Shown in pieces: positions 6,315 to 44,184 of a stretch of 64,000 nt of DNA. The stretch lies in IMG/VR virus record IMGVR_UViG_3300045988_101743, positions 1 to 64,000 of that record; one strand, 5' to 3'. The stretch is from a virus. Numbering within the stretch: position 1 is the first letter of the stretch; every line of letters begins with the position of its first letter. The notes beneath the pieces were generated by a model that made no database searches, was not told where the DNA came from, and worked only from the letters and a program-made list of their open reading frames with translations. The translations under genes and the position numbers were made by a program.

Positions 6315-6961
6315 TCCTCATCCTCGTCCTCGTTAACAAGCCCGATGGCCCGTGACACGATGTTGCCGATCCATGCGCCAATGAGCGCGCAGATGGCTAC
6401 CAGTAAGCAAGACAATGCGATTATTCTCATAGCTGAAAACGTTTGGTTAGCCGTCTGCCCACCGTGGCCCGCGAGATAGCGTTAGCGACCTCAACGAGAA
6501 CAACGATGAGCATCATGGCGAACAAATAACAAAAACATAAAAAATTTCTCATAAGAGCCGCATCCCTGAGTCGAACAGGGTAATGAATCACTATCGCGCC
6601 TATCCGTTTAACGCGCTATATGCGGCTGTTGAGCGCCCGCTGGCGCCCGTGTTAAAAACATATCTAAGTATCTAAGACAGACAACGCCGTCACGGCGTAA
6701 ACATACAAGTAAATCCATCACGGACAACATGTAAAAAAACAAATGTGTTACTGTTTAACCTATTATATATCATTTATATGAAACAATTCAGCGCAAACCT
6801 GTTATCTCAACACATTTGCGTTGCTTTTTATCTTAGTCGTCGTTGTCTGAATTTCGTTGTTAAAGCGGGGAGGCTTCCGAGGCTCTTTGTCCATAGCGCC
6901 GCTTGCGCATTGCGCCAGCCTCCCCAATCAATAACAACAAATCAAACTATGAAACTATAAG

Positions 6962-9164: not shown

Positions 9165-9370
9165 AAGCTATTCTCCTTTTGTATGCACGTATCCACAGAT
9201 GCCGACGTACATGATGTATTTTGAGTATTTAACCATTTTTCCAAAAATCTACTATATGGAGGAAAATTCTCAGCAAACAACAAATCCAAACCAAGAATGT
9301 CCTTATGATTTTTCTTCACTTCTTCTTTGCTAATTAGTTTCATCATTCTCAATCTCAATAAAATCTCCAA
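9161..9370 (-). CDS. Small hypothetical protein (69 aa)
   Basis: ORF in an AT-rich segment; weak. Confidence 0.25.
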   Translation of the reverse strand: MEILLRLRMMKLISKEEVKKNHKDILGLDLLFAENFPPYSRFLEKWLNTQNTSCTSASVDTCIQKENSL

Positions 9371-9740
9371 TGCCTAAACGAGCATTGTTTATGCAAGACG
9401 CAATCCACTCTATCAGGTATGCGCTGGCCTCTCCGCCGTGTTCCATACCGAGGGCCTCTTCTATTGCGTCGCAAACATGGCTCGCCTCATGGCTCACAAC
9501 TCCGACAAGGCGCGCTGTGGCATGGTTGTCGAACACCACGAGCTCGCCAATCTTGTTGTCAGAGCACCTTCGCACCTCGAAGCATGTCACGGCCTCGGCC
9601 ACACAAAGGTCGAAGTCCACAGGCTTTCCTCTCTCGCTCTTAAAAACACCTTCGAGGTCTTCCGGTCCCAACCCTACGGCCACCCAAAGCCTTCGTGGGT
9701 ATAGGCCAGGATCATACTCGTAGTATCCGTATCTCTTCAT
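9330..9740 (-). CDS. Hypothetical protein with an HExxH motif (possible small zinc metallopeptidase, ImmA/SprT-like); start at ATG 9740
   Basis: MKRYGYYEYDPGLYPRRLWVAVG...VVSHEASHVCDAIEE carries HEASH. Confidence 0.4.
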   Translation of the reverse strand: MKRYGYYEYDPGLYPRRLWVAVGLGPEDLEGVFKSERGKPVDFDLCVAEAVTCFEVRRCSDNKIGELVVFDNHATARLVGVVSHEASHVCDAIEEALGMEHGGEASAYLIEWIASCINNARLGIGDFIEIENDETN

Positions 9741-10187
9741 GCACCGTTCTATCTTTTTGTTATTTCTATGTTGGCGAGGAGGTTTCGGAACCTCACCCTC
9801 ATGCGGCCTACTCTCATTCATCCGCATTGCCGTGCATCTGTTGACACCACTCGCCACTTGGTTTCCGCTAAGTATATGATTTATAGACGCCCTTTGCGTT
9901 ATCGTCTTTGTCGGTCGGTGAGAGCCGCCCGGCAGCCTTCTGTGGTTTCGGTTACGCTTCTCTTGCCATCATGTGATGGTAGTTAGTCGTTGCTTGTCCC
10001 TACTCGCACCTTAGGAAGGACTTTCGATGGTCATGCGTCCGTTCACGGGTCGTTCGCCAGCCACATATTATTATATGTTGTGGCTTTGCGAAACAAGGCA
10101 GCCTCATTCGCCGCTCGCCGCTACTGTTTTTTCCACGCCATCTGTTTTGTTCCAATAAGCAAAGAGCTACTCCTTTCATTTCATTGT

Positions 10188-10237
10188 GCCTTCATCGGGG
10201 ATCGAACCCGCCACTGGGCGCCAGCCGCCCTGAAGGC
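10188..10237 (-). other. 50-nt tRNA-like minihelix: 7-bp acceptor-like stem + 5-bp hairpin + T-arm (GGTTCGATCC) + discriminator A; no D-arm or standard anticodon loop
   Basis: Minus strand reads gccttca-gg-gcggc-tggc-gcccagtg-gcggg-ttcgatc-cccga-tgaaggc-a. It lies in the 520-bp ORF-free gap 9858..10379. Confidence 0.35.
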
Positions 10238-10379
10238 TTGATAGGAATCCTGATGTCTCATCTGTATTCCTCTCCCCACGCTTGGGTACCTGTAATAATA
10301 CTAACCTCAAACTTTAGATTTTGAAAAATCAAAAATCAATCAATAACCAAAAAATCTATCTACCAAATATATTAAAGAA

Positions 10380-10638
10380 TTACATAATCCTGTTGTTCTC
10401 GATGAGCCTCATTACATCCTTCACCTTGTAAAGGAATGTGTTCCTTAGCTTATAGGTCGGCAACTGCCCTGACTCCCGAAGGTCCTTGATGAAATCCTTG
10501 CTCACGCCACCGAGAAAGACGGCCAGCGACTTGCTTGTAAGGAACTCCTGTTCCTGTTCCTTCAACGACAGCACTTTCTCGACCACATTGATGTTTAGGC
10601 TTGCGCGGCATCTTGGCCGCTTCTGTTGGCTTGTCTGC
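10380..10638 (-). CDS. HTH_17 / excisionase-family DNA-binding protein (start ATG 10638)
   Basis: LTSKSLAVFLGGVSKDFIKDLRESGQLPTYKLRNTFLYKVKDV matches the Xis/MerR-type HTH_17 pattern. Confidence 0.5.
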
Positions 10639-10642
10639 ATGG

Positions 10643-11533
10643 CTATCCCTCCTCTTTCTTGTTTTGCTCTATGAGCGGCATTATGTTGTGCTTCTTCAGC
10701 TCTTCGTACAGGAAGAGCCTGCCCTTCTGCGTCCATTTTGTGTGCATCACTGTTCCGTTCGTACCGTTCTTGTGGACTATTGGGAATGTGTCGGACTGCA
10801 CGTATCCGAACGGGAGGTGTTTTGCGTAGAGCACCCACTGGCCGCCTACCTTGTGCTGCACCCCGAAATTTCTGAGAAGGACGTTGAACGCCTTGGCCGA
10901 CTGTCCGTAGTCTTGCGCTATCTGCGTTGTCGTGACGGTCTCCTTGCTTGCGAGGATCATGTCAACGTATGTCACCTTTGGCTCCATTTCAGCTATCGCG
11001 CCGTTCAGCTCTACAATCTCCTTGGAGGTTGCCTCAAGTTGCCTCTGCTGTTCCTCGATCTGCTCCTGCTGCTTTGCGGCGAGCATGAGGGCCTCTGCGA
11101 ACGACTGGGGCACTTGGTACTGGCTTCTCTCTTTTGTCTCAAGCTCTTCCCAGCGGTTGATAATCTTAGCTCTCAATATTACATCATATCCACTTGCTAA
11201 AAGGAGACACGCCTTTTTATTTAAGACATACATGTTTCTTTCTTCTCCCTTGGTGTCCTTGTAAGTAGAACTCTCAATAATATAGCTTGATGTATTTTGC
11301 TTACCAAAGCACCAGTTCAAAATCGCCACCTGGGTTTTATTCGACAAATACTTATACTGAGTTCTATCACCTCGATGGTAATCTTCTCTGCAATCAACCA
11401 ATCCCGATGTGGATTCGTTGATTTTGTCTATAAGAGCTCTGATGTCACGCATTACGTGAGCATGTTGCTTGCCTGTCACCTCAGCTATCTCAAGCGAGGT
11501 CATTGTTTCCTTCTTGATAATTAGGTCTGTCAT
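10643..11533 (-). CDS. Phage antirepressor: Rha N-terminal domain + ANT/KilAC C-terminal domain
   Basis: N-terminal SLEIAEVTGKQHAHVMRDIRALIDKI is Rha. C-terminal TTTQIAQDYGQSAKAFNVLLRNFGV...GGQWVLYAKH...WTQKGRLFLYEEL is KilAC. Confidence 0.75.
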   Translation of the reverse strand: MTDLIIKKETMTSLEIAEVTGKQHAHVMRDIRALIDKINESTSGLVDCREDYHRGDRTQYKYLSNKTQVAILNWCFGKQNTSSYIIESSTYKDTKGEERNMYVLNKKACLLLASGYDVILRAKIINRWEELETKERSQYQVPQSFAEALMLAAKQQEQIEEQQRQLEATSKEIVELNGAIAEMEPKVTYVDMILASKETVTTTQIAQDYGQSAKAFNVLLRNFGVQHKVGGQWVLYAKHLPFGYVQSDTFPIVHKNGTNGTVMHTKWTQKGRLFLYEELKKHNIMPLIEQNKKEEG

Positions 11534-11771: not shown

Positions 11772-12037
11772 TCTACTTGCTTTATTACTTCTTATATAAT
11801 TTGGAAATGTGCGACAAAAGTAGTATATTTGCAGTGTGAAATATTGATACGCCACTTTCGGTCGCACAGTCTTCCGTTTGTGTCGGTCTTAATTCGTTGC
11901 TTGACCCGAAACACAAGTGCAAAGATAGTGCTTTTATAGTGTAATGCAAAAGAAAAGGTCATTTTTCTCACTATATTTAACACTTCTAAACATTTTGTGT
12001 TGTTTTAGTTGCATATATGACACTAACGCACACAACT
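11772..12037. promoter_or_regulatory. Divergent promoter/operator region between the leftward early operon and the rightward CI-like repressor
   Basis: 266-bp AT-rich ORF-free gap with divergent gene starts on each side. Confidence 0.4.
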
Positions 12038-12697
12038 ATGGATACAAACATTATCGAAAGGATGGAGATGGTATTAGCGAAGAGGCATGAAACCAAGAAC
12101 TCTTTTGCTCTATCTGTTGGGATCGCCACCTCTAACTTCACTCGCAAGATGAAAGGAACGCAAGCATTCACCAAGCGCGACTTCATGTTGATCTCAAAGG
12201 CGACTGGCATCAGCAGGGAATGGCTTGAGTTTGGCGAGGGCGAGATGGTTTCCGACAAGGGCGCAATCGTGACACAGGTGAAAGCAGAGAGGCCCACGGG
12301 CGACGGGAAGCCCTTCTACGACGTTGACTTTGCGCTCGGCTTCAACGGAATGTATAATGACGAGCCGAACGTGCCTTCAAAAATCATCAGCGTACCCGGC
12401 TACGAGAAGGCCGACTTCTGGTGCCGCACGTCAGGCGACAGCATGAAGCCGTTCATCAGCAACGGAGACATCATCGCCCTGAAGGAGATAGAGGACTGGC
12501 AGAGCTTTCTCCCCATGAACGAGGTGTACGCCATCATGACAACCAACGACCTGAGAACCGTGAAGGTCGTCCGCAAGGGCAGCGACGACGAGCACCTGAC
12601 CCTCCACGCCTACAACGAGGAATACGAGGATCAGGAGATAAGCAAGAGCGCAATAACGAAAGTTTTCAAGGTGATAGGAGCTTTGAAAACAATGTAG
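12038..12697 (+). CDS. CI/LexA-like repressor: N-terminal XRE HTH + C-terminal S24 peptidase
   Basis: HTH FALSVGIATSNFTRKMKG and the S24 motif GDSMKP...NGDIIALKE. It is divergent from the antirepressor operon. Confidence 0.75.
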   Translation: MDTNIIERMEMVLAKRHETKNSFALSVGIATSNFTRKMKGTQAFTKRDFMLISKATGISREWLEFGEGEMVSDKGAIVTQVKAERPTGDGKPFYDVDFALGFNGMYNDEPNVPSKIISVPGYEKADFWCRTSGDSMKPFISNGDIIALKEIEDWQSFLPMNEVYAIMTTNDLRTVKVVRKGSDDEHLTLHAYNEEYEDQEISKSAITKVFKVIGALKTM

Positions 12698-13037: not shown

Positions 13038-14252
13038 ATGAAGTACCGCATTTACGTAGACACAACGAAAAAGAGGCAAGACGAGCAAAGCCCGGTCGTG
13101 CTAATATTCGAGGACAGTGGAATGAGGTTCAAGATTTCCACGGGCCTGTTCTCTTCCAGGAAGTTCACAGGAAAGGAGTTTCCAAAAGAAGAGCCCAACC
13201 ACAAGGCTAAGACTCTCAATCTTGCGAAAAAGCTGCTTGATATCGACGAATACCTACTGGTGAACAGCGGTGTTCCGTTCAACAAGGCGAAAGAGGATAT
13301 CAAGGCGATTTTGAACGGAGAGGGGAACGCCCTGAAGCCAATCACGTTCTACATGGAGGAGCTGGCCAAGACCAAGACGCCGAGCACCGCAAAGTTCTAT
13401 ATCAAGACAGCGAGGAAGATCAGGGAGTTCGACCCATCAGCCACCTTCGACACCATAGATGCTGAATGGCTGCAAAATTTCGACACGCACATGAAGGAGA
13501 ACGGGAACACGACCGTCAATGGCCGCGCCATCCATCTTCGCGACATAAAGGCCGTGTTCAACGCCGCCTTGGCCGATGAGATAACGACCAAGTACCCATT
13601 CAGGAAGTTCAAGATCAAGGCGGACAGCGTACCCATCAAGAACATAACGCTTGAGCAGCTTAGGGAGCTCAGGGATTGCAAGGTTGAGCCCAACAGCCGT
13701 ATTTACCGCGACCTGTTCCTCCTGTCGTTCTACCTTTGCGGCATCAACCCTGTCGATCTGCTGCACCTCACTAAGGCAAACATCAAGAATGGGCGCATCG
13801 TTTATACGAGGAGCAAGACGCACAAGCTGTACGACATACCTCTGCCACCGGAAGCGAAGGAGATTTTCAGGATGTATAAGGGGAAAGACTACCTGTTGGA
13901 GGTGCTTGACTATTACGGTGATGATTACCTGCATTTCCTGAGCAGATGGAATAAGATGCTGAAAAGAATAGGAAATATGAAGATATGCGAGCGTTCGGAC
14001 GGCAGGAAGGTGCTGAGGATGGGTGAGCCTATATTGCCGAATCTGACTGTTTATTCGGCCAGATACACCTTTGCGAGCATCGGTGCGGTGCTTGAGATAC
14101 CGAGAGAGACCATAGCGTTGTGCCTTGGTCACTCTTGGGCCGATGTCACCGCGCATTATATCAGCTATAGCATGAAGCGTATAGATGATGCGGTAAGGAA
14201 GATCATTGACTATGTGAACGCAGACATTTCCAATGAAAATGACGATATATGA
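13038..14252 (+). CDS. Tyrosine site-specific integrase
   Basis: 404 aa. C-terminal catalytic region ...RYTFASIGAVLEIPRETIALCLGHSWADVTAHYISY carries R, HxxR and Y. Confidence 0.85.
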   Translation: MKYRIYVDTTKKRQDEQSPVVLIFEDSGMRFKISTGLFSSRKFTGKEFPKEEPNHKAKTLNLAKKLLDIDEYLLVNSGVPFNKAKEDIKAILNGEGNALKPITFYMEELAKTKTPSTAKFYIKTARKIREFDPSATFDTIDAEWLQNFDTHMKENGNTTVNGRAIHLRDIKAVFNAALADEITTKYPFRKFKIKADSVPIKNITLEQLRELRDCKVEPNSRIYRDLFLLSFYLCGINPVDLLHLTKANIKNGRIVYTRSKTHKLYDIPLPPEAKEIFRMYKGKDYLLEVLDYYGDDYLHFLSRWNKMLKRIGNMKICERSDGRKVLRMGEPILPNLTVYSARYTFASIGAVLEIPRETIALCLGHSWADVTAHYISYSMKRIDDAVRKIIDYVNADISNENDDI

Positions 14253-21999: not shown

Positions 22000-22275
22000 T
22001 TAGAACGTCTGCTCGGTCTCGAACTCCACTTTGTTTTCCCAATCGAAGGAGTCGGTATCACTCTCCTCTTCTGGCGAGAGATACCAGTATGCGGTCAACC
22101 TGCAACCGTCCATTGTGACGGGCGCACCTGCATACTCAGCCTTTCCGATATGTTCGGGGTTCTCGAATGATGGGTACATAACCCTGCTGGTTGGCTCTGC
22201 GTTTGAAGCCGTCGCCTTGCTGACGATATCCTCGCCAAACTTGCTAATCGCTTCCGCTTTGCTTAATTTCTTCAT
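22000..22275 (-). CDS. Hypothetical protein (start MKKLSKAEAI)
   Basis: ORF with an internal ATG after low-complexity leader residues. Confidence 0.4.
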   Translation of the reverse strand: MKKLSKAEAISKFGEDIVSKATASNAEPTSRVMYPSFENPEHIGKAEYAGAPVTMDGCRLTAYWYLSPEEESDTDSFDWENKVEFETEQTF

Positions 22276-22341
22276 AATTTTGTTGTTGTTAATGGTTCGT
22301 TGTGAAATGCCCGTCAAGCCGATAGCGCAGCTTTGGTCCAT

Positions 22342-22605
22342 TTAATCAACGCAGAACCATGGTGACACGTACACTGGGTCGTTGAAATCGACAAACTCCC
22401 CCTTGTCGTCGAGAGACAAGATGTCGTCCTCGTACACCTCGTAACGGGCCACGTGCGCATCCGCACCGCACTCGCGCTTGTCGTCAACAATCTTCTTGTT
22501 TCCAATCAGGAAACGGATGCGCGACTCCGCATACTCGAGGCTGCTTTGGCAGTCTACGCGAGACGCATGTTTGGCCTCGTCGATGAAATAAATCACATAC
22601 ATCAT
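22342..22605 (-). CDS. Hypothetical protein (87 aa)
   Basis: ORF. Confidence 0.4.
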   Translation of the reverse strand: MMYVIYFIDEAKHASRVDCQSSLEYAESRIRFLIGNKKIVDDKRECGADAHVARYEVYEDDILSLDDKGEFVDFNDPVYVSPWFCVD

Positions 22606-22635
22606 AAATGATAAAAATTAAAGGGTTATGTAATG

Positions 22636-23571
22636 TTAGCTAAACAACGCCAGTACCTGTTTGCTGATTTTCTTTCGAGCACAGATATAGTTTGACGTCA
22701 TTGTGATGTTCGGTACATTTCCGCTTATGTGGCCCATCATGATGGCAATCTGCTCCAATGGGCAACCCTTGAGCGACAGGAGCGTTGCGAAGGTCCTGCG
22801 CCCCGTGTGTGTCGCAATGAACTGGTACTTCTTCCCGACCTTTGTCTTGCCGTTCGAGAACACGGACACCTCGTCGGTTATGCCGCATTTCCTGCACATG
22901 TCCCTAATCGGTTCGTTTAGGTGGTCGTTACGAATGTTTCTCTCATTGTCGGCCCAATCGTCCACAAGGTATTGAAGAAGCCATCTGTGTACGGGCACAG
23001 ACACCTCTACGGGGTGTTTTTGTGGAACGTACGTAAGGTACTCTGTGCCGTCGATGGTGTGCAGGTTGGCGATCGTGAACCTTCGGCAGTCAACACACCT
23101 CGCGCCAGTAAGGCACTCGCGCATGAACATGAACTTGGCGTAACGCTCACGCTCGTTCATCGGCTGGTAGTTGTGCAGCCTCTTGAGCTCGGCGGACGTA
23201 AGGTACACGTTCTGCGACGGAACCTTCTTGGACTTGAGGATTGTTGAGAAAGTCTTTGACTTGATGGGTTTCGTGGCCGAGTTCCTGTTGAGGATGGCCT
23301 TTAGCTCCGCGCATATAGTACGAACGCTGTTTGGCGACATCTCGGACAGCATATCCTCCTTTAGGTCGGACAGGGTGTCGTCGGTCAGGTCCTCCCACTC
23401 GGGAGTCCTTCCTATGATGTCCCTAAGCCTTACAAGCGTAGTGATCCTGCCTGGATGCTTGCGACACCACGTTCCCGAGAACGAATGCCAACGAGGGTTC
23501 TCTACGGTCAGGAACCCATGCTTGATAGCGGAGGAGTATTTCTTCCTCTGCTCTTCAGTTAGTTGTTTCAT
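22636..23571 (-). CDS. Second tyrosine recombinase (phage-integrase/XerD-like), carrying the cassette-type upstream motif
   Basis: ATHTGRRTFATLL...EQIAIMMGHISGNVPNITMTSNYI carries HxxR and a Y nucleophile. The upstream element is catatattaaccaatatccattATG. Confidence 0.8.
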   Translation of the reverse strand: MKQLTEEQRKKYSSAIKHGFLTVENPRWHSFSGTWCRKHPGRITTLVRLRDIIGRTPEWEDLTDDTLSDLKEDMLSEMSPNSVRTICAELKAILNRNSATKPIKSKTFSTILKSKKVPSQNVYLTSAELKRLHNYQPMNERERYAKFMFMRECLTGARCVDCRRFTIANLHTIDGTEYLTYVPQKHPVEVSVPVHRWLLQYLVDDWADNERNIRNDHLNEPIRDMCRKCGITDEVSVFSNGKTKVGKKYQFIATHTGRRTFATLLSLKGCPLEQIAIMMGHISGNVPNITMTSNYICARKKISKQVLALFS

Positions 23572-23648
23572 GACTCATAATGGATATTGGTTAATATATG
23601 GCTCCGCACACCTGTTTCACAAAGCGTGCGGATGTTGGCCAAACGCCC

Positions 23649-24149
23649 TTAGATGAGAGATACGGCTGCCGTGCCGGACAGCTTTCCCCTCTTCTTCTCA
23701 ACAACATACCCTCCCATTATGCGCAACATAGAGAGACTGTTCTCATAGAAAGGGTTGTCAACGATGATATATGTTGACGAATACAGCGTACGTTTTTTAA
23801 TCTCTGACGCATAATCGCTGAACCCTTCCGCTCCATAGTTGCGAATGCTGTATTTAATCCACTCGTCGAGGTCTATGTTCATGGTCTTCCAACCGCGTTC
23901 CCTGTCTTCGTCTGACAAGTTCCAGTATTCGTGACGGTCCCATCCGTACTCTCCGTCCTTCTTCATTCTCTCAACCTCTTCGCCAGTCTTGATGTCGACA
24001 AAACGAGTACGTAGCACGACGAGCCTACTGTTGACGTCTCGCTCGGAGAAGTATCCGGCCACGGCGTTCATGAAGCCTGTTGTGTCAAACTTGTTCGGAA
24101 CGAAACCCTTCTCCTTCAGAAGGTCTTTCGCCGTGATGATTTTTCCCAT
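23649..24149 (-). CDS. Hypothetical protein (166 aa), cassette-type gene
   Basis: Preceded by cgtatattaaccattaaaacaactaagcatttATG. Confidence 0.5.
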   Translation of the reverse strand: MGKIITAKDLLKEKGFVPNKFDTTGFMNAVAGYFSERDVNSRLVVLRTRFVDIKTGEEVERMKKDGEYGWDRHEYWNLSDEDRERGWKTMNIDLDEWIKYSIRNYGAEGFSDYASEIKKRTLYSSTYIIVDNPFYENSLSMLRIMGGYVVEKKRGKLSGTAAVSLI

Positions 24150-25647
24150 AAATGCTTAGTTGTTTTAATGGTTAATATACGTTCGCAAAGGTAGGTAAAT
24201 TATCTTATAACAACCAACCTTTTTATCTCTTTAACATAATAAATTCCGTCTGGCTCACAGGTGTGCGCACACGGCGAAAATATAGGCGCACTCTGAGGGT
24301 AGTGTAGCGTTCCTGTACGTGTGTGGTGTGGAGTGTGAGACGGCACGGTTTAATGAAAGCGACAGCTTATTAAACGGTACCATAGCTCAGAGTCCACCGA
24401 ATTGAGCCCTCCTTGTGCGCCTTCGGCTGCTATGCCGAATCCATGTGTCAGACGGCGCGCCGCATGACTATACTTCAATGACTAATTATGCGTGAGTCAC
24501 GATGAAGGATCGACGTCTGAGGGATACGAAGACGTCGATCTTGATTCAAGAGACTCATGCTTAAGATAATGTCGTCCTTCACAATGGAAAACTGCGGTTT
24601 TTGAATTGGTGGGCACGCTCAGACGGCGTGTAGCCTATCTGTACGTCATTGATACGCACCCGTTGCGTAGTGAAATGGTCCGCGTTCGATTTGCACGCGG
24701 ACCATGATCCGTAACAAACGGGGGCATTGAATTGTCCGTCCTTGCGTGTCCGTAGGGCTATCTGCTTGCTCCCCTCATTGACCTTGGCGCAACGCTATAC
24801 TCAGTTGATGTAAGCTGAGGGATAGACCCGGGTGAAAGGATGTCCGTTGGCATCAAGGAACCCGGGTGATACCCAGCTTTCATAAATGTGGTCAAACTTG
24901 GGAAACTACCCATGCGTTTGGGTTTTCGCGATTGCAGGCGGCTTGGTACAGTCGTCTACTTGATTGTTTTGTGCAATACTCGCCAGAAGACCGACATAGA
25001 GGTCGTCTGGTTAGAGACTTGCTTGATAAATGATGTCGCTCGCCATCGCGCTTTGGCGGTGTACTCCGCCTATGGATTGCGAAACAGACTGGCGCATCGC
25101 TTTATTAGCTTGATATAACCCGCCTTCTGAAAGAGATGGTTCCTGAAATCGGACGTTCGGTAGAACATGCGTTTCAGTGCTCCATCTCTCTCCTTGAGAG
25201 GCGGCGTTATTGAATTTGCCCGTTCCTCATCCATCACCGTGCGCCCGGTGCTCATAAAGGATCCACTCATGGCACATCCCGCATCGCATTACGTGTGTGA
25301 TACGAATCCTGTGGGAATGACCGGATAATCCAACCTAAAGCCTCGCCGATAAGGCAGGCTTTGGCTCGGATGAGCCGGTTCACTCACCAGGACGCTAAAT
25401 GTTGTGCCCGTCGTGAAGCGACCCTGCGGTGGGTTTGTGTCTTCCGTCATGTCGCGTTCCACATTGCAATACTGCGTTGATGTTGTGCGGCGTTGACACT
25501 GGCATCGTTAAGCCCGGTGTGGGTTTCAAGGATGCCAGTGGGAGGCCGTCTTCTTCCAGCGCGTTAGAGCTGGACCGAAGACGGACGTACGCCGCATGCT
25601 GAATATGCGACCATTCGGAAGACGGGCCCTGCGGTGGGTCACAACCA
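24150..25647 (-). other. 1.5-kb ORF-free, hairpin-rich region immediately 3' of the reverse transcriptase: candidate retroelement RNA component (DGR template region, group II intron domains or novel RT-associated ncRNA)
   Basis: No ORF of 60 aa or more with protein-like composition, despite about 50% GC. It has many perfect 8-11-bp stems, for example gatcgacgtct...agacgtcgatc at 24511-24542 and ggtccgcg...cgcggacc at 24680-24706. A 13-nt direct repeat ccctgcggtgggt at 25422 and 25627 brackets a hairpin at 25546-25584. Confidence 0.35.
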
Positions 25648-26913
25648 TTAGAGGTTGGCGACAAGCGCGCCGTACGCGGCCTTGCTTGTGCGTAGGGCCT
25701 TCTGGGCGCATCCGATTGACAGGAAGCCGCAAAGCTCCTTGTCGACCTTCGCCCTGTTGGCCTTGACGTTTCGGCCACGGCCACGGTCTATGCAACCTAC
25801 GGCCTGTGTCTTGACGTACCCGAGGCCACCAACCTTCGTCTTGCCTGTGCCTACCGCACGTATGCAGTCCATGGCAAAGGCGTTGAGCTTGTCGATGTCC
25901 TCCTTGACATTGAGGACGGGAAGAACCTGTGTGGCCCACGAGAACTCACCGTAGCCCTTGTAGAGGTATCGGTTGACAGCGTTGATGGCTTTCGCCATCG
26001 TATTGCCGCGCTTCTTGATGGTCCTTCTCTCAATCTCCTTCTGGAAGGTCTTGATCCTCTTTGCGGAGAGTGAGATGCTCCTTCCCTTGATGGAATACCC
26101 GAGGAACTTGAACCAGTGGTCCGAGTCAAGGTATTCGACCTTCTTGGGATTGAGCGTCATGCCCATCTTGGCCAGCTCCTCCGTCATGATCACCATGGCC
26201 TCCTTGTAGTCCTTTCCGATGAACAGCGTGTCGTCAGAGTAGCGGACGTAGTATCCGCCGAGACGGGACAGCCTGTCATCGATATGGTACAGGACCACGT
26301 CGGCGAGCCATGAGGCAACGCTGCAACCCTGCTTTAACGACTGGTACTTCTCTTGTAGAACGCCTTCTGTGTCAAAATAGTAGTTGCAATGGTAGTAATC
26401 CCTGATGACATCAACGAGAGCCGACTTACCGAACTTGTCCTCGACCTTGTCAAAGGCCCAGTCAACGAACGCAAGCGGCACCGTGTCGAAATACTTCGAC
26501 AGGTCGGACTTGAAGCCTATGACCGTACCGTTGGCGGAGGCTATCCTTGTGGAAACCTCCTGTACGACACGGCCACAACCCAGGCCCTTTTGGTAGGACT
26601 TGCAATTGGGATGCACCATCTCGGGCATAATCTCAAACAACAGGTCGTTTGCGATGCTGAGAAGAATGCGGTCGGCAGGCTCATTGATATAGACGGTACG
26701 GAACTCTCCGTTGTCCTTTGGTATGAGCGCCGTGTGTGGCGGCATGATCTTGTACTTTCCGTCACGTATTCTCCTATACATCTCAGCGCGCGCCTGTGGC
26801 GTAGTGAGCCTGTACATCGTGGCCTTGTCCATGTCCTTGTCCATGCCCTTCGCTATGGCGTATTGCCAACGCTCGGGCTCAAAGAACATCTGTAAGATTT
26901 TGTCTTCTTTCAT
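25648..26913 (-). CDS. Reverse transcriptase (RT motifs 1-7, YSDD catalytic box); family unresolved
   Basis: IPKDNGEFRTVY (motif 1), FKSDLSKYFDTV (motif 3, DGR-like KYFD), KQGCSVASWLADVVL (motif 4, group-II-like QG), YVRYSDDTLFIG (motif 5) and WFKFLGYSI (motif 7). 421 aa, with the cassette motif aacattaaccaatagaattATG upstream. Confidence 0.85.
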   Translation of the reverse strand: MKEDKILQMFFEPERWQYAIAKGMDKDMDKATMYRLTTPQARAEMYRRIRDGKYKIMPPHTALIPKDNGEFRTVYINEPADRILLSIANDLLFEIMPEMVHPNCKSYQKGLGCGRVVQEVSTRIASANGTVIGFKSDLSKYFDTVPLAFVDWAFDKVEDKFGKSALVDVIRDYYHCNYYFDTEGVLQEKYQSLKQGCSVASWLADVVLYHIDDRLSRLGGYYVRYSDDTLFIGKDYKEAMVIMTEELAKMGMTLNPKKVEYLDSDHWFKFLGYSIKGRSISLSAKRIKTFQKEIERRTIKKRGNTMAKAINAVNRYLYKGYGEFSWATQVLPVLNVKEDIDKLNAFAMDCIRAVGTGKTKVGGLGYVKTQAVGCIDRGRGRNVKANRAKVDKELCGFLSIGCAQKALRTSKAAYGALVANL

Positions 26914-26986
26914 AATTCTATTGGTTAATGTTAAACATGTGCCCTACTCTTTATGTAGGGCTTAGGGCTACGACACATTCAAGCGC

Positions 26987-27478
26987 TTAGGCCTTTTGGG
27001 TTCTTGCCGCAAAAAGGAGTGATTTCCATTCGTCATAGGAAACATACAACTCGAATAAGTCGTACTTCTCCATACCGCACTCCTTTCTCTTTGCCACAGC
27101 GGTACGCCTGTTGTCGCAAAAAACATACACGTCGTTGTTGTCCCTGAAATACCAGTAGCACACGCCAGGGCCATTCGTGAGGAATATCTCCTTGTCGCGC
27201 TCCCACAACTGCTCTCTAAGGAGTAGTCTCTGATTCCGAATGCACGTTCTGTTGATGTCGTCGGCTTTAAGTGTAGTCACGAACTTGTGCTTACAACGCT
27301 TCTCAATCAGCTTGAGAAGGTTGGGGCGCCATGCCTCGTTGTCCACAAACGGGAAGTCTCTGTTCTGGAATGAATACTCCGTACCGCTGACGCTTACGTG
27401 TATCTCACTTTTGTTCTCAATGGGCGCGTTCTTGACAGCGTCAAGGAGGCTTGAAATCTCTGCTTTTGTCATATTCAT
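26987..27478 (-). CDS. Hypothetical protein (163 aa), cassette gene
   Basis: ttattaaccattaaaaatttATG upstream and a hairpin downstream. Confidence 0.5.
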   Translation of the reverse strand: MNMTKAEISSLLDAVKNAPIENKSEIHVSVSGTEYSFQNRDFPFVDNEAWRPNLLKLIEKRCKHKFVTTLKADDINRTCIRNQRLLLREQLWERDKEIFLTNGPGVCYWYFRDNNDVYVFCDNRRTAVAKRKECGMEKYDLFELYVSYDEWKSLLFAARTQKA

Positions 27479-27719
27479 AAATTTTTAATGGTTAATAAGA
27501 GAGCCGGCCATGAGCTAACATGACCGACTGTTTTGGCCCAATGTCGCAGGCATGGCGCCTGTCTTTAGTCTTTCGATCTAATAAGCTGCCTTCTGTGAAG
27601 GCTGCTGGATACTTCACACTAAAGGTGTTACCTTGTGTGAGTATCCACCGCCTTCGGTTTGAGAAGCTTATGTGAATTTTTGCCTGCCCACACTGGGGCG
27701 CTTGGCGTTTAGGTGAGCG

Positions 27720-28721
27720 TTACTTCTTTCTCCACTCGGCAATCTTCTTGTCCACGTCGATGCCAGAGTCCTCGATGAGTTTCTTCATGACGCCGATCAT
27801 GCGCCAGCCTTCAACGACATACTCGCTGGCCTTCAACTCAACAAAGTCGAGCGACTTCTTCTCGTTGAGGCCGGTGAAGCGAGCGCCATGGAACATGATG
27901 AGGTTTCGCATGGTGAAATAGGCGCCAGAACCCTTGTACGCGTTGATGAACGAACCACTGATATTCGTGCTTCTCGCAAGGCGCTTGCGGTGCTTGTTGA
28001 AATCGCACACCAGCTCGTACAGCTTGCGCGGAGACTGCTCGTAGTTGAACTTCACGGCGTAACGGCGAATGTCGTCATACAACTTCTTGTTGAGGTCGCT
28101 CACGAAGATGTTCCTGCCTCCAATGCGCACATAGGGAACACCCTTGCACGTGTGCTTGTAGACTTTCTTCCTCTCGGAGTTGAGGCGGTACATGAGTTTG
28201 CCCTCCACGTAATCCTTGAGAGTGTTGAGATAATCTGACGCCATGACGGATATCGTTGGCCCGTTGAACCACTGGTTGCGACGCATAAAGTTGGCCATGT
28301 CGCCATGCTTGTGCATCTTCATCTGAGCGCGAAGCTCATCCTCGACCATGCGCCACTGGTACTCATAGCCTCGCTCCTGAAGGAGCTGGTTGAAATTCTT
28401 ACCGGACTTCATGTTTCTGAGGATATGGAACATCTGTGCCATGACCCATCTGCGGAATAGCTTGTAGTGGTTGATGTAACCACCGCCAGCAATCTTCGTG
28501 TAGACAGGGTCGTCGTCGTCAACCATCACAGGAACTCCGTCGACGACCTTGACAACCATCTCCTCTCCCATTGGAAAGTAGTTTGATGTGTCAACGCCAG
28601 CCGCCTTGAGCGCCTCGATGCGAGCGGCTGCTCCCTTGGGCTTGTAAACCTTGGCGCTTGCGCCCTGACCGTTCATCTCTGACAATGTGAACTCACCTGA
28701 AATCATTACGTTTCTTTTCAT
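27720..28721 (-). CDS. Hypothetical protein (333 aa), cassette gene
   Basis: cattattaaccaactaaattttagcaattATG upstream. Confidence 0.55.
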   Translation of the reverse strand: MKRNVMISGEFTLSEMNGQGASAKVYKPKGAAARIEALKAAGVDTSNYFPMGEEMVVKVVDGVPVMVDDDDPVYTKIAGGGYINHYKLFRRWVMAQMFHILRNMKSGKNFNQLLQERGYEYQWRMVEDELRAQMKMHKHGDMANFMRRNQWFNGPTISVMASDYLNTLKDYVEGKLMYRLNSERKKVYKHTCKGVPYVRIGGRNIFVSDLNKKLYDDIRRYAVKFNYEQSPRKLYELVCDFNKHRKRLARSTNISGSFINAYKGSGAYFTMRNLIMFHGARFTGLNEKKSLDFVELKASEYVVEGWRMIGVMKKLIEDSGIDVDKKIAEWRKK

Positions 28722-28792
28722 AATTGCTAAAATTTAGTTGGTTAATAATGTTAAAAACATGAAGAGGAACGGGGTGTGAACCCCATGCCTCC

Positions 28793-29071
28793 TTAGGCTG
28801 TCCTGTAAACTGCATCACATTCTATAATGGCCTTGTATTTCTTAGGGAACTTGGACCATCCATTGTACGCCTTGATAACTTGCCTCGACGACCACCATGT
28901 GACTGCCTCCTCGTCAATGTGGAAGCATTTTAGCTTATCCGTATCGTCATACAGAACCCACTCGCCTGATGCAAGCACGCCTTCCCTTAGATGAATGGCA
29001 TGGCCGCCAGACTCCGAATACCGACGCACAAGGTCGTCAACATAGTGGTAGTCGCAATAAATCTTTCTCAT
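28793..29071 (-). CDS. Hypothetical protein (92 aa), cassette gene
   Basis: cattattaaccaaccaaagaacgtattATG upstream. Confidence 0.45.
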   Translation of the reverse strand: MRKIYCDYHYVDDLVRRYSESGGHAIHLREGVLASGEWVLYDDTDKLKCFHIDEEAVTWWSSRQVIKAYNGWSKFPKKYKAIIECDAVYRTA

Positions 29072-29140
29072 AATACGTTCTTTGGTTGGTTAATAATGCT
29101 GACAGGAACGGCCACGCTAATGGCCGCACCCGGAAAAGGC

Positions 29141-29614
29141 TCAATCGTTTGAATCCACCCATTTGCGAAGGATGACGAAATCCCTGTCGTTCTTGGACTG
29201 CCAGAACCACGTTCCGTACTCGTCCTTCCATTTCAGGGCACCGGTCATGACCGCTGCAAGCACCAATGATTCAAGCATGAACCTCGCAAACTCTCGCGGC
29301 TCGCCGTAAATCATGTCAGCGTCCGACAACTCCTTCTCGGGCAAAGCCTTGAAATAGGTCCTGCGGTGCGACTCCGAGCGCTCTGATGGCACGGACCGCT
29401 TGTACGCCTCGTAGCGAACCTCAAGGCACTTGATGATGTCGTGCCCCTCAAAATCCTCCTCGCTAACACCGAGGGGAAGGTCGTGCTTTCCATCCTTGAT
29501 GAGATACTTACCGTCAATGATGAGGGATCGCCTCTCAAGGTTGACATAGAACTTTGCGCCATTGCTGACGAGCTCCTCTGTCTCCTTTCCGAAAATCTTA
29601 TCCATAATAATCAC
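29141..29614 (-). CDS. Hypothetical protein (157 aa), cassette gene
   Basis: catattaaccaacaaacgtgattattATG upstream. Confidence 0.5.
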   Translation of the reverse strand: MIIMDKIFGKETEELVSNGAKFYVNLERRSLIIDGKYLIKDGKHDLPLGVSEEDFEGHDIIKCLEVRYEAYKRSVPSERSESHRRTYFKALPEKELSDADMIYGEPREFARFMLESLVLAAVMTGALKWKDEYGTWFWQSKNDRDFVILRKWVDSND

Positions 29615-29669
29615 GTTTGTTGGTTAATATGCGCCAGTCACGCCGTATTCCGGCATGGCTGGCTGTTGG

Positions 29670-29882
29670 CTAAATGTTGTCGGAGACAACACGCTTGTCT
29701 GTCGCCATCGCCACGCGCTTATGACGCATGGCGCCGGCCTCATAGACCGTAACATAACGGTACTCCTTGGCGAGTTCAATCATCCTCTTTCTCGCCTCCT
29801 GTCTTGTCAGCAAGGCTGAAGTTTGCTCTACGCCAAGACCAAGTCTGAAAACATACACCCTCATAGCGTTCATTACCACCAC
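29670..29882 (-). CDS. Small hypothetical protein (70 aa)
   Basis: ORF overlapping the previous stop by 10 nt. Confidence 0.35.
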   Translation of the reverse strand: MVVMNAMRVYVFRLGLGVEQTSALLTRQEARKRMIELAKEYRYVTVYEAGAMRHKRVAMATDKRVVSDNI

Positions 29883-30148
29883 GTTGGGATAAAATAGGAT
29901 AGATTCTTAGATTCTCTACGAGCTTTTCTTCGTTCGTTTTCATAAACACTTCCGTTAATACACTCGTCAAATGTTCTTGCAAGCATTGCGCCAACTACCC
30001 AATAGGCTGGTCTGTAGTCTTGTGGGACTTTGTCGAGGTCGATGCACCCAGACGCAAGAATCTCCTCTATGCACTTGTTGAACGTGACTGGGTCGCTGTA
30101 CTCTTGAACGACGTGGTTGCATTTTCTGATAAACTCTTCTTTTGTCAT
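29873..30148 (-). CDS. Hypothetical protein (91 aa, start MTKEEFIRKC), cassette gene
   Basis: ctatttaaccatagcattataattATG upstream. Confidence 0.45.
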   Translation of the reverse strand: MTKEEFIRKCNHVVQEYSDPVTFNKCIEEILASGCIDLDKVPQDYRPAYWVVGAMLARTFDECINGSVYENERRKARRESKNLSYFIPTWW

Positions 30149-30209
30149 AATTATAATGCTATGGTTAAATAGGAAAATCCCCACCCGCAAGAGTGAGGAT
30201 TTGTTTGGC

Positions 30210-30413
30210 TTAATAAAGAGTTGCTCTGTCACGAAGGTTGCCGCTTATATCGCCATCCTTCTGTAGTCCATCAATCCAGTCATTGAAATTCATGTTCAAG
30301 TCAAGATCGAACTTTGTCTTCTTCCCCGTGTAGTCTATGCCACACTCGTCACAAAGCTGCCAGAACGCCTTTCTTAGCTCCTTCTGGTTCGTGTAATAAT
30401 ACTTTTTTGCCAT
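30210..30413 (-). CDS. Hypothetical protein (67 aa), cassette gene
   Basis: ttattaaccaatcaaattttgaattATG upstream. Confidence 0.45.
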   Translation of the reverse strand: MAKKYYYTNQKELRKAFWQLCDECGIDYTGKKTKFDLDLNMNFNDWIDGLQKDGDISGNLRDRATLY

Positions 30414-30461
30414 AATTCAAAATTTGATTGGTTAATAACAAGATCCGCATTAAGCTACACA

Positions 30462-30619
30462 GGATCTGGAAAAAAACAGTAACTTTGAAGCCACTCGCAC
30501 GCCAAAGCATCATCGAGGGCTTTCGCTGCTTGCTCTCCCCAAACTCGCGGTTTGTACGCATCTTCCTTCAGATACTTCTCTACAAGATGCTGTAGTTGTT
30601 TTTTTTCTTCTGATGTCAT
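30462..30619 (-). CDS. Small hypothetical protein (52 aa, MTSEEKKQLQHLVEKYLKEDAYKPRVWGEQAAKALDDALACEWLQSYCFFPDPV), cassette gene below the ORF-track size cutoff
   Basis: atattaaccaaaactacaaattATG upstream; translated manually. Confidence 0.35.
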
Positions 30620-39255: not shown

Positions 39256-39756
39256 TCACCGTTTTTTCTCCTTCTTGTTTTGGTAAATTAAGCATTCTTC
39301 ACATCTTGTCGGGTAGTGGACTGGTACGAAGTACTGTATAGGCTTCTCGTCCACCTTGATGTCGTCCTGCTTGATTTTGGCGTATTCGGCGATGGCCTTT
39401 GTCATGTCCGTCCACTCCTTCGATCCGCTCTTGTACCTCTTTCGAGCCTTCACGAGGTCGCTGAGTATCTTTTCCTTGGACGTCTCCTTGTTGAGCTCTG
39501 CGAGGTCTATCTCCTCGTCTTTCGAGCCTGTTATGCGAGCGACGATGGCCTCGCTGTTCTCGTAGCTTGTCATCAGCTTCTGTTGCTGCGGCCTTGAGTA
39601 TGTGCTATACAGGCGCCCGAAAGACACATAGAACGCGTCCGACTTGTTCCAGCCAGCCCTTCTTAGGTCCGCATACATCAGCTCCTCTACGCTGTATATT
39701 CCAGTCTTATCGAGCTCCTTTTGCAATGTCACAGAAATTTGGAATCGCTCTTCCAT
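39256..39756 (-). CDS. Hypothetical protein (166 aa) downstream of the head-morphogenesis gene
   Basis: ORF. Confidence 0.5.
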   Translation of the reverse strand: MEERFQISVTLQKELDKTGIYSVEELMYADLRRAGWNKSDAFYVSFGRLYSTYSRPQQQKLMTSYENSEAIVARITGSKDEEIDLAELNKETSKEKILSDLVKARKRYKSGSKEWTDMTKAIAEYAKIKQDDIKVDEKPIQYFVPVHYPTRCEECLIYQNKKEKKR

Positions 39757-39771
39757 AATGTATCCTTTCTT

Positions 39772-40560
39772 TTATTCCTTGTTTTTCAAAATATCTTTCT
39801 CATCGAAAACGTACGTTACCCAGCAACAGCATCTTGAGTGGTACAATGGTGGCGGGTCGTTCTTGTCGTTCATCTTGTGGAAGCGCTCGGCGTGGCTGTC
39901 GCACAGCTCGCATGGGTAGGTGGAGCCCCTGTGCGGTATGAACCCAATGGCACCGTTTCGCCTTGCATAGTTGTACTCCTCCTTGCTCCACGCTATCGCC
40001 ACTGTCCCTTGTGCGTTCCTTACGATATTCTGGTATGCAGAACGATATACGCCTCGTCCGTACGACGGGGTGTCAATGCGCTCTCCGGCTGCGGACGCTT
40101 TGGATATCACGCCTCCGACATACGGGTCCTTGTACTCTGAAATGGCTGTTGATTTCGCGTCATCGTCTGACATCTTCATCCTCTTTGCCGCGAACAGTAT
40201 CTTGACAACATCGTTAAAGAAATACTCCATATAGCTCTCGCTTCTATCCCTGAACGTCCGACCGAAGATGTTTGAACGCAACAATCTACCAACAGCGCCA
40301 GTGTTCTTGTCTCCAACTATGGATATGCTGGCCTTTGAATACTCTACGATATACGCGTCAATATCCTCCTTCGCCTTGCTTATCGACGAGTTCGCCTTTG
40401 TCCTCACGGTTCGCGAGAAGACGGTCAGCGACGACGACACCCTGACACCATTTGCAGCGTCAGCGATGTCCTCCGCCAATGAAGAGAGAATTTCGTCTAT
40501 ATGGGCTTGGACGTTCCTTTCCGCCTGCTTCCTCTTTGAAGCTATAACCTTTCCGTCCAT
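39772..40560 (-). CDS. Head morphogenesis / minor capsid protein (Mu F / SPP1 gp7 family)
   Basis: C-terminal PCELCDSHAERFHKMNDKNDPPPLYHSRCCCWV resembles the conserved F-like motif (P..C..HPNCRC). Confidence 0.6.
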   Translation of the reverse strand: MDGKVIASKRKQAERNVQAHIDEILSSLAEDIADAANGVRVSSSLTVFSRTVRTKANSSISKAKEDIDAYIVEYSKASISIVGDKNTGAVGRLLRSNIFGRTFRDRSESYMEYFFNDVVKILFAAKRMKMSDDDAKSTAISEYKDPYVGGVISKASAAGERIDTPSYGRGVYRSAYQNIVRNAQGTVAIAWSKEEYNYARRNGAIGFIPHRGSTYPCELCDSHAERFHKMNDKNDPPPLYHSRCCCWVTYVFDEKDILKNKE

Positions 40561-44051: not shown

Positions 44052-44124
44052 AGCGGAGTGGCAGCAGTGGTAGCTCGCTTGCCTCATGAGCAAGAGGTCG
44101 TTGGTTCGATTCCATCCTCCGCAA
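44052..44124 (+). tRNA. tRNA-Met(CAT)-like gene (imperfect acceptor and D-stem pairing; no encoded CCA)
   Basis: Anticodon stem cttgc/gcaag with loop ctCATga. T-loop ggTTCGATTcc. D-loop AGTGGTA. 3' strand ctccgc pairs with 5' gcggag. Confidence 0.45.
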
Positions 44125-44184
44125 CAAGAGTAAAAAGATAAAACCTGGAAACACCAGGTTCAGGATAACAAACTTTTTAACACA

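Follow-up and report, generated by a model that had tools for sequence, protein, structure and literature searches.

tRNA-like structures mark processing sites in mitochondrial transcripts ('tRNA punctuation') and at the 3' ends of MALAT1 and MEN-beta, where the signal is mascRNA; the tRNA-miRNA units of murine gammaherpesvirus 68 belong to the same class, and among phage RNAs C4 of P1 and P7 is one example of processing by RNase P. Reduced to its acceptor and T-arm, a tRNA becomes a minihelix that still serves as a substrate of RNase P, tRNase Z and the CCA-adding enzyme. The acceptor-TpsiC minihelices used in the laboratory are single 12-bp hairpins of ~35 nt and, to our knowledge, the acceptor/T-arm minihelix has been known until now mainly as such a substrate and as the hypothetical ancestral half of tRNA. 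The D-armless and 'armless' mitochondrial tRNAs of nematodes and mites are also very small (42-60 nt); they keep a 7-nt anticodon loop and decode. Near tRNA islands, phages and prophages encode the large multi-helix RNAs GOLLD and ROOL, whose function is unknown, and tRNAs sometimes lie within the GOLLD linker (PMC12286853, PMC5737381). Here we describe a 50-nt tRNA-like minihelix without an anticodon, encoded on the minus strand at 10188..10237 of a 64,000-nucleotide stretch of viral DNA (IMG/VR record IMGVR_UViG_3300045988_101743, positions 1 to 64,000; hereafter the window), together with the structured RNA that follows it in the same non-coding gap. The minihelix is a tRNA remnant, probably used as a processing signal.

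With phage tRNA genes and pseudogenes the minihelix shares its slot, its T-arm sequence, a 7-bp acceptor, a discriminator base and the lack of an encoded CCA. Unlike phage tRNAs it is only 50 nt long, has neither D-arm nor anticodon loop and is missed by ARAGORN and by the Rfam tRNA model; unlike a plain tRNA pseudogene, its top half appears to be kept by compensatory change. As in the tRNA-like processing signals, a non-decoding, tRNA-shaped fold borders a candidate functional RNA, in a slot that is interchangeable with real tRNAs, although the cleavages of those signals have been mapped experimentally and those of the minihelix are predicted. mascRNA keeps its cloverleaf, whereas the minihelix consists of the acceptor/T-arm half and one short hairpin; it also lies in a bacterial virus, and sister lineages have real tRNAs in the same job. 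Its 7-bp acceptor stacked on the T-arm, canonical T-loop and single-stranded 3' discriminator recall the laboratory minihelices, from which it differs by an extra 5-bp hairpin, a 4-nt linker and a mismatch at 49-65. Like the armless mitochondrial tRNAs it is very short and without a D-arm; unlike them, it has a 5-nt loop closed by a G-C pair, which cannot present an anticodon. By analogy, the minihelix would work most like mascRNA and mitochondrial punctuation, and in shape it comes closest to the laboratory minihelices. The RNA of the gap resembles GOLLD and ROOL in lying in a phage beside a tRNA island, but in five lineages it is matched by neither Rfam model (RF01998 and RF03087, respectively) at E up to 5-10, is smaller (~230-430 nt) and occurs in gut phages of Bacteroidota.

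The minihelix and the tRNA slot

Read 5' to 3' on the minus strand, the element comprises an acceptor 5' strand GCCTTCA (10237-10231), a central hairpin of 5 bp and 5 nt, GGGCG-GCTGG-CGCCC (10230-10216), a linker AGTG (10215-10212), a T-arm (10211-10195) with a G49.A65 mismatch, four pairs CGGG/CCCG and the loop TTCGATC, and the acceptor 3' strand TGAAGGC (10194-10188), followed by the discriminator A at 10187 without an encoded CCA. All seven acceptor pairs are Watson-Crick, and the T-loop and the G53-C61 pair are canonical. RNAfold returns the acceptor helix, the central hairpin and the T hairpin both for the element alone and inside a 570-nt gap transcript; the folding energy of the minihelix alone is unremarkable (z = -1.3 to -1.6). 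The original prediction, made from the letters, had described a 50-nt minihelix with this acceptor, extra hairpin, T-loop and discriminator and without a D-arm, and such an element is indeed present. The string given for it totalled 52 nt, however, through a 'gg' spacer between the acceptor strand and the hairpin that is absent from the DNA, and the T stem, drawn with five pairs, has four Watson-Crick pairs and the mismatch.

Only 20 nt separate the acceptor from the T stem, and a D-arm with G18 and G19 is absent. So is an anticodon arm with a 7-nt loop and U33: the loop of the hairpin is 5 nt, GCUGG. An alternative 4-bp/7-nt hairpin, which would expose a CUG anticodon, was rejected; it needs G33 and breaks a G-C pair. 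The tRNA-finder check suggested with the original prediction was carried out and yielded no call: ARAGORN reports a tRNA-Met at 44052-44125 as the sole tRNA of the window, and the Rfam tRNA model does not match the minihelix even at E up to 10 on 1.6 kb. No tmRNA was found by ARAGORN in the window or by Rfam, and we rejected a tmRNA identity on these negatives and because the two acceptor strands lie a mere 36 nt apart.

To gauge chance, we counted T-arms of the form GTTCRANNC, with at least 4 of 5 stem pairs, sitting flush on a perfect Watson-Crick 7-bp acceptor. From 500 dinucleotide-shuffled versions of the window the expected number is 0.026 per shuffle, with at least one such structure in 13 shuffles and two or more in none; the actual window holds two (10237-10188 and 6626-6557). 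When G.U pairs are allowed, 28% of shuffled windows contain a T-arm with a flush 7-bp helix.

The closest relative of the window, L001 (IMGVR_UViG_3300045988_098110), carries the same gap at 95% identity. Its minihelix differs at a single base, which lies in the unpaired linker (AGTG to ACTG), and further downstream it has a clean deletion of 76 nt. Because this relative differs in the linker, an exact search for the 50-mer in viral contigs returned no matches. In more distant relatives, whose HTH proteins are 58-65% identical, most of the gap has no blastn similarity, yet the anatomy is the same: an HTH gene, then a tRNA or tRNA-like element, then a block with the words CTTTG..TTATTG, ATGCGTG and AAAGGACGCAYGAC.ATACGAAAG. 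Pattern scans of viral contigs were built on these conserved words. A first, loose 20-mer gave mostly chance matches and a strict 20-mer few members, whereas a pattern with two anchors recovered 73 stretches, among which 26 distinct cores are true family members. With few exceptions the contigs are viral, from the human gut and 45-88 kb long, and the RNA family is abundant in human-gut viral contigs. In genome contigs the core 20-mer pattern gave 24 matches, all by chance in unrelated sequence, with no host or prophage copy; a scan of metagenomes recovered only lineages already known, and blastn of the gap against GenBank phages gave no match. The order Ant, HTH, RNA module, small protein, replication genes is kept in larger groups too. 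As judged by comparison among these relatives, the gap is a conserved non-coding module of LoVEphage-like temperate Bacteroides/Phocaeicola phages, made up of leader hairpins, a tRNA slot, a predicted structured RNA of ~330 nt and an odd tRNA-like element.

We surveyed the slot with ARAGORN in 26 representatives, L002 and L245 among them; the lineages of the window and of L043 were examined separately. A genuine tRNA, which is Arg-CCU, Asn-GUU or Gln-UUG, fills the slot in 22 of the 26 and ends 21-250 nt upstream of the first conserved block of the RNA, and further tRNAs lie 226-630 nt downstream. Three lineages have instead a tRNA-like element that is not called, of 50 nt in the window, 57 nt in L002 and 68 nt in L043. 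Common to the three are a 7-bp acceptor, a 4-bp T stem, a mismatch at 49-65 (G.A, A.A or A.C), a canonical T-loop and a discriminator with no encoded CCA, and the T-loop identity positions G53, U54, U55, C56, R57, A58 and C61 are intact in all of them. Their centres are wholly different: a 5-bp hairpin, a degenerate cloverleaf and a long hairpin. The T-arm string of the window, CGGGTTCGATYCCCGA, is that of ordinary tRNAs in unrelated phages, which have T49-A65 in place of G49.A65, and this identity marks the minihelix as tRNA-derived. We considered and rejected descent from the particular Arg, Asn or Gln tRNAs of the relatives, to which the minihelix has no similarity beyond generic tRNA features. 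Together, these comparisons show that the minihelix derives from a tRNA and fills a tRNA slot that leads into a conserved, predicted structured RNA. Of the possibilities first raised for the element, a degraded tRNA is thereby supported, by the slot and by the T-arm, as is the start of a structured RNA, since a conserved, covarying RNA begins within ~25 nt of the minihelix 3' end.

The two halves of the minihelix have not changed alike. Between the window and L043, which are ~68% identical overall, 15 of 16 T-arm positions agree, as do 6 of 7 in the acceptor 5' strand, the latter counted by eye because MAFFT places that strand one column off. Both changes in the acceptor 3' strand preserve a pair (U5-A68 to C5-G68, and U4-A69 to U4.G69). 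By contrast, the centres cannot be aligned (20 vs 38 nt), and the leader and promoter region is ~50% identical. L192 differs from L002 (98% identical) by U-A to C-G in the central stem and by U4.G69 to C4-G69 in the acceptor. RNAalifold run on six elements gives a consensus of acceptor plus T-arm, in which 4 of 14 predicted pairs have changed on both sides; the acceptor stem accounts for two of them, the T stem and the base of the central hairpin for one each. These alignments show the predicted acceptor/T-arm half to be conserved and the centre not, a pattern that fits a constraint acting on the top half only.

Processing handle and competing explanations

We propose that the minihelix is a degenerate phage tRNA kept as an RNase P/RNase Z processing handle, which would free the adjacent RNA from an early transcript, and we give this reading a probability of roughly 0.55. 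The D-arm and anticodon arm would have been lost, so that only the coaxial 'top half' of acceptor and T-arm is left. The early genes Ant and HTH share a strand with the module, which may be transcribed with them or from a promoter of its own. RNase P would cut 5' of G10237, since an acceptor/T-arm minihelix is a minimal substrate of this enzyme; RNase Z would cut after the discriminator A10187, since no CCA is encoded, and would set the 5' end of the structured RNA at ~10186. On the other side, RNase P acting on the downstream tRNA-like element at 9856-9772 may set the RNA's 3' side. None of the tRNAs or tRNA-like elements examined here has an encoded CCA, and all of them therefore need endonucleolytic 3' processing. 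In lineages with a short spacer, the purine-rich start of the RNA, AAUGAAAGGAG, begins 3-10 nt after the 3' end of the tRNA or tRNA-like element. The minihelix would thus act as punctuation, with selection keeping the parts that processing enzymes read and releasing those that decode.

Several observations weigh against this proposal. In L245, a divergent member, the slot contains an ordinary hairpin and nothing tRNA-like, and LoVEphage has no tRNA-like element before its copy of the RNA motif, so a tRNA in front of the RNA is not obligatory. Other lineages have 126-250 nt between the tRNA and the conserved core, and a cut at the tRNA 3' end therefore does not always define the functional 5' end. 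The mismatch at the base of the T stem (G49.A65, or A.A or A.C elsewhere), together with the missing elbow, could make the element a poor enzyme substrate. Further, the covariation within the minihelix comes from three lineages and few independent events, close relatives may also look conserved because they share a recent ancestor, and cleavage at the ends of the minihelix is something that we entirely infer.

A functionless relic, that is, a phage tRNA gene with internal deletions that is decaying between the two conserved RNA segments that carry it along, is unlikely. In its favour, the slot normally holds a working tRNA; the minihelix, with its 5-nt loop and no D-arm, cannot decode and has lost the first pair of its T stem; the three lineages display three degrees of loss (68, 57 and 50 nt); and the window lineage and L001 are just 5% apart. 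Yet the decay is uneven: acceptor and T-arm are intact, with compensatory changes, next to a centre and a leader that diverge to ~50%, every T-loop identity position survives in three lineages, and a perfect Watson-Crick helix of 7 bp is not expected of a neutral relic at 68% overall identity.

Improbable, in our view, is that the minihelix stays attached as a working domain of the RNA, where it might recruit the CCA-adding enzyme, EF-Tu, tRNA-modifying enzymes or the ribosome. tRNA-shaped elements do frame the module on both sides in the lineages examined for both, and in the L002 lineage a compensatory change preserves the central hairpin, a feature that would be superfluous in a pure cleavage signal. 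GOLLD offers an analogy, with linkers that sometimes contain tRNAs and a suggested role for the linked tRNAs (PMC12286853). Against such a domain, the slot is mostly filled by ordinary tRNAs of three identities; these must be released to function, so that no specific tRNA body can be required, and the distance from the tRNA to the core ranges between 21 and 250 nt.

More doubtful still is a mimic or decoy acting in trans, which might, for example, absorb a tRNA-targeting defence nuclease or a tRNA-binding factor early in infection. The early-operon position of the minihelix would suit this role, as would the presence in the window of at least three anticodon-less tRNA-shaped elements (10237-10188, 9856-9772 and 6626-6557), and the related LoVEphage encodes RtcB, suggesting that tRNA damage matters to these phages. 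However, most known tRNA nucleases target the anticodon loop, which the minihelix lacks; its sequence shows no conservation across lineages other than generic tRNA features, and no RtcB homologue was found in the window.

We consider it very improbable that the element is an attP core or its remnant, in which a copied host tRNA 3' end would serve one of the two tyrosine recombinases; the original prediction had named the second of these. The phage is temperate and has two integrase-family genes (13038-14252 and 22636-23571), integrases of Bacteroidetes phages often target tRNA 3' ends, and the T-arm with the acceptor 3' strand resembles such an end. But the minihelix sits in the early operon, 2.8 kb from the first integrase, with CI, two small open reading frames (ORFs), Ant and HTH in between, and ~12.6 kb from the second. 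Besides the acceptor 3' strand it has the 5' strand, and the compensatory changes in L043 affect both strands, which points to a constraint at the level of RNA and not of DNA identity. Moreover, across 2.9 million viral contigs the combination of CGGGTTCGATYCCCGATGNNGGC and this acceptor is confined to this phage lineage, and a functional host tRNA would not carry G49.A65. Lastly, a fortuitous palindrome with a T-loop-like word, to which the weak single-sequence folding z and the frequency of the G.U-tolerant pattern in shuffled windows lend some colour, is ruled out for practical purposes by the strict Watson-Crick expectation and by the syntenic position, structural conservation and compensatory changes in other phages.

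If the minihelix is indeed a retained processing handle, it would be a natural, evolutionarily maintained acceptor/T-arm minihelix in a bacterial virus. More tentatively, and at somewhat less than even odds, the RNA of the gap may constitute a third family of sizeable, ornate RNAs in phage tRNA arrays, after GOLLD and ROOL, and the first for Bacteroidota gut phages, with tRNA-shaped modules domesticated as non-decoding processing handles. On that broader reading the minihelix would be a natural tRNA 'top half' that selection for processing alone has kept. Already with the minihelix as a processing handle, the puzzling association of phage tRNA islands with large structured RNAs, seen so far with GOLLD and ROOL, would extend to Bacteroidota gut phages, and a reason for it would suggest itself, namely that tRNAs act as built-in processing signals. 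The handle would also flag a widespread, conserved and unannotated RNA in the early operon of LoVEphage-like phages, a group that ranks among the commonest temperate phages in the human gut and from which cultured relatives are now available. Were the minihelix merely a decaying pseudogene, it would be ordinary, and the neighbouring RNA family would still be worth describing.

The structured RNA and the remainder of the module

The RNA lies downstream of the minihelix on the transcribed strand; the 330 nt at 9858-10187 had at first been placed upstream of it. The 520-bp ORF-free gap reported with the element holds, as 522 nt, only if the next ORF is taken to begin at GTG 9857. Because the stretch that follows this GTG is itself conserved tRNA-like RNA, the true non-coding gap is 10379-9741 (639 nt), up to ATG 9740.

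The 5' domain of the RNA (10014..10174, minus strand) is predicted to fold into three nested helices (Pa, Pc and Pb); where hairpin Pd would stand it carries an expanded insert, and it has the conserved loops CUUAUUGG, GCGUGGAAAA..AGUA and GAACGGACGCAUGA. A covariance model of this domain, R1, was built from 13 sequences with the window lineage excluded. It matches the window at 10174-10014 on the minus strand with 57.2 bits (E ~1e-12) and gives 57 matches among the fetched loci. Over 33 distinct sequences, 91% of pair cells are paired and 12 of 24 pairs have changed on both sides, counted in an alignment that is guided by the model, whose fit favours the structure; 0 of 500 shuffles reach any of these measures, and slid alignments are at most 50% paired. 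Helix Pc (GUAUG-CGUG / CACG-A-CAUAC) was found independently by RNAalifold on a plain MAFFT alignment, with three compensatory pairs. Helix Pb is GCGG/CCGU in the window and elsewhere UCGG/CCGA, GUGG/CCAC, GCCGG/CUGGC, CAUC/GGUG or GCUGCCGU/ACGGCAGC. Helix Pa is weakly supported, with C-G in just 12 of 32 sequences. The G.U pairs in these helices fit the minus strand only.

A second domain (9935..10020, minus strand; read by eye) is 86% identical to that of L043. Its closing helix Pe pairs CCTTC (10019-10015) with GAAGG (9940-9936) around a hairpin CCATC-ACAT-GATGG. By eye, Pe takes the forms CCAG/CTGG, GCCAG/CTGGC, CCTG/CAGG, CTAG/CTAG and CGAG/CTCG in other lineages, and the hairpin inside it CACCG/CGGTG, TCACGG/CCGTGA and ATGTT/AACAT. 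A search of Rfam (15) with the window and the L043, L129, L159, L192, L193 and L148 loci, at E up to 5-10, returned no family for this RNA; gathering and permissive thresholds alike gave tRNAs and noise only, such as a reverse-strand 'Plastid-ycf2' that is the mirror image of a tRNA shape. The gap RNA thus looks like an undescribed family. A small protein encoded by the 59-aa ORF at 10179-10000 was rejected as an explanation: in L043 the reading frame is broken, and the lengths of the indels are not divisible by three.

In most family members the Pb/Pd junction, CCGG-A-GA-GCAUC / GAUGC-CGU-GA-C-CUGG, fits the kink-turn consensus, with a C stem, a 3-nt bulge, tandem G.A pairs and an NC stem. 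We do not claim a kink-turn for the window (10113-10121 and 10044-10051, minus strand), where the Pd hairpin is replaced by an insert of ~70 nt. Six relatives (L202, L204, L205, L221, L247 and L251) have a spacer of 126-146 nt between tRNA-Arg and the RNA core. It contains an extra conserved, apparently structured segment of ~100 nt (...GACGGCGCAAAGGTAAGTCC...CTTGCGTCAGA...), absent from the window lineage, which may be a further RNA domain.

Two hairpins precede the minihelix. Leader hairpin 1 (10275..10286, minus strand; by eye) is CCCA-AGCG-TGGG, and its counterparts are CCCA-AGAG-TGGG in L043, TACCA-AGCG-TGGTA in L148 and CCCAT-AGCG-ATGGG in L195; 11 of its 12 bases match L043, in flanks that are ~50% identical. 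Leader hairpin 2 (GGAAT...ATTCC; 10244..10270, minus strand) lies directly 5' of the minihelix in the minimum free energy fold. By eye, its position is conserved with other sequences: CGGGGTG/CATCCCG in L043, GGGCGAG/CTCGCCC in L148 and GGGGCG/CGCCCC in L195. Further upstream, a regular-expression search found TAtaTTTG (10364..10371, minus strand) just past the HTH stop codon, a match to the Bacteroidetes -7 consensus TAnnTTTG. It gives a weak hint of where the module transcript may start, and it is not conserved in the relatives looked at; read-through from the Ant-HTH operon is an equally possible source of the transcript. An explanation of the gap by a sigma-70 promoter or terminator was rejected, as the promoter scan did no better than shuffles.

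Past the structured RNA, a 76-nt segment (9859..9934, minus strand), 70% identical to L043, is dispensable, because it is cleanly absent from the 95%-identical L001. The module closes with a second tRNA-like element (9772..9856, minus strand), which has a cloverleaf-like fold and is 82% identical to L043. Read from 9856, it has a 7-bp acceptor TGGCGAG/CTCGCCA, a D-arm GTGT-CAACAGAT-GCAC, a T-like arm GAGGT-TCCGAA-ACCTC and, at its centre, a long hairpin ATGCGG...CCGCAT with a 15-nt loop and no anticodon loop. ARAGORN does not call it in the window; it aligns with odd tRNAs of ~90 nt that relatives have at this position and to which ARAGORN gives inconsistent anticodons, Ser(act), ???(aact), Lys(ctt) and Leu(taa). 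The structured RNA is bracketed by tRNA-shaped elements wherever both sides were examined, L245 being without the 5' one. The ~90-nt elements (L204 735-824, L221 857-946, L148 1029-1119, L247 826-921 and others, in coordinates of 1.4-kb extracts) have normal acceptor, D and T arms and an extended anticodon arm with a conserved inner hairpin GAUA-CC(N)NUCU-UAUC and an 8-nt bulge.

Elsewhere in the window, another anticodon-less tRNA-like element with a strict acceptor lies at 6557-6626 (minus strand), within an ORF-free stretch at ~6440-6961. Folded as 71 nt including the 3' T at 6556 (z = -2.5), it has a perfect 7-bp acceptor GCCGCAT/ATGCGGC, a D-arm AGCGCG-TTAAACGGATAG-GCGCG, a canonical 5-bp T-arm and, in the place of an anticodon arm, a 5-bp stem with a 3-nt loop. 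Ahead of the element stands a long hairpin, GGGGAGGCT...AGCCTCCCC (~6863-6922). The element also occurs in L001, and elements with the same D-arm motif stand before the resolvase gene in L002 and L192.

The phage and its other features

The window is from a temperate phage. Pfam and PHROGs assignments place an integrase gene with a SAM_5 domain at 13038-14252 and an S24/CI repressor gene at 12017-12697, from which the early operon diverges on the minus strand. This early lytic operon begins with an Ant/Rha antirepressor gene (10643-11533), followed by an HTH_17, excisionase (Xis)-like gene (10380..10640) directly upstream of the module, the non-coding gap, a gene for a 136-aa protein of phrog_1365 without assigned function (9330..9740, from ATG 9740; the first protein gene past the module), DUF3310 and a RuvC-like resolvase. 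The portal and large terminase genes are at 40.5-44 kb. The large terminase is 57% identical in amino acids to those of LoVEphage, Bacteroides phage BI-TP1 and Phocaeicola phage PV4-TP1, and LoVEphage is the nearest isolate by this protein. LoVEphage has been described (PMC8525569) as temperate, 71 kb in size and equipped with nine tRNAs, two integrases and a reverse transcriptase, an inventory of genes that the window resembles.

In LoVEphage (L277, MW660583.1), its own HTH gene is followed by a gap of 384 nt (22254-22637) that begins with GTTCTTTGACATATTG...AAAGAC. This truncated remnant, the family's outermost RNA motif without its core, was all that a covariance-model search of the first 50 kb of the genome found. 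The same genome has, at 29237-29439, just before its resolvase gene, a 203-nt feature in two pieces annotated 'tRNA-His / tRNA-Undet', and at 39267-40532 an annotated RtcB tRNA ligase gene. The tRNA-Met (CAU) at 44052-44125 on the plus strand, the only canonical tRNA of the window, sits immediately past the start of the large terminase gene, itself on the minus strand, and LoVEphage keeps an array of eight tRNAs in the same neighbourhood.

The second tyrosine-recombinase gene (22636-23571, minus strand) encodes 311 aa and matches Phage_integrase with E = 4.5e-7; it is the recombinase meant by the original prediction, and LoVEphage likewise has two. Beyond it, the window carries a UG27 reverse transcriptase (25648-26913, minus strand; PADLOC RT_UG27, E = 3e-217) and the UG27-system accessory protein RTas337 (E = 6e-105), the genes of the system being listed at 25648-26913, 26987-27478 and 27720-28721 on the minus strand. 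Arrays of non-coding RNA have been described for UG27 reverse transcriptases in a 2026 preprint, as repeated units of ~150 nt in an intergenic region of the locus. We rejected the gap RNA as such a unit, since it is single-copy and ~15 kb from the reverse transcriptase gene, and R1, run with filters off on the UG27 locus (23500-30500), found no match; the two are treated as unrelated. An ORF-poor 1.5 kb beside the UG27 genes (24150-25647) may hold the UG27 array, though no tandem repeat and no similarity to the gap RNA model were detected in it. Past these genes, an AT-rich intergenic motif of 41 nt (...CATAAT...TTGGTTAATAA) occurs in three copies on the plus strand, at 29056-29096, 29590-29630 and 30398-30438. 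The copies are 534 and 808 nt apart, each just before a minus-strand ORF, and may be repeated promoter or operator sequences.

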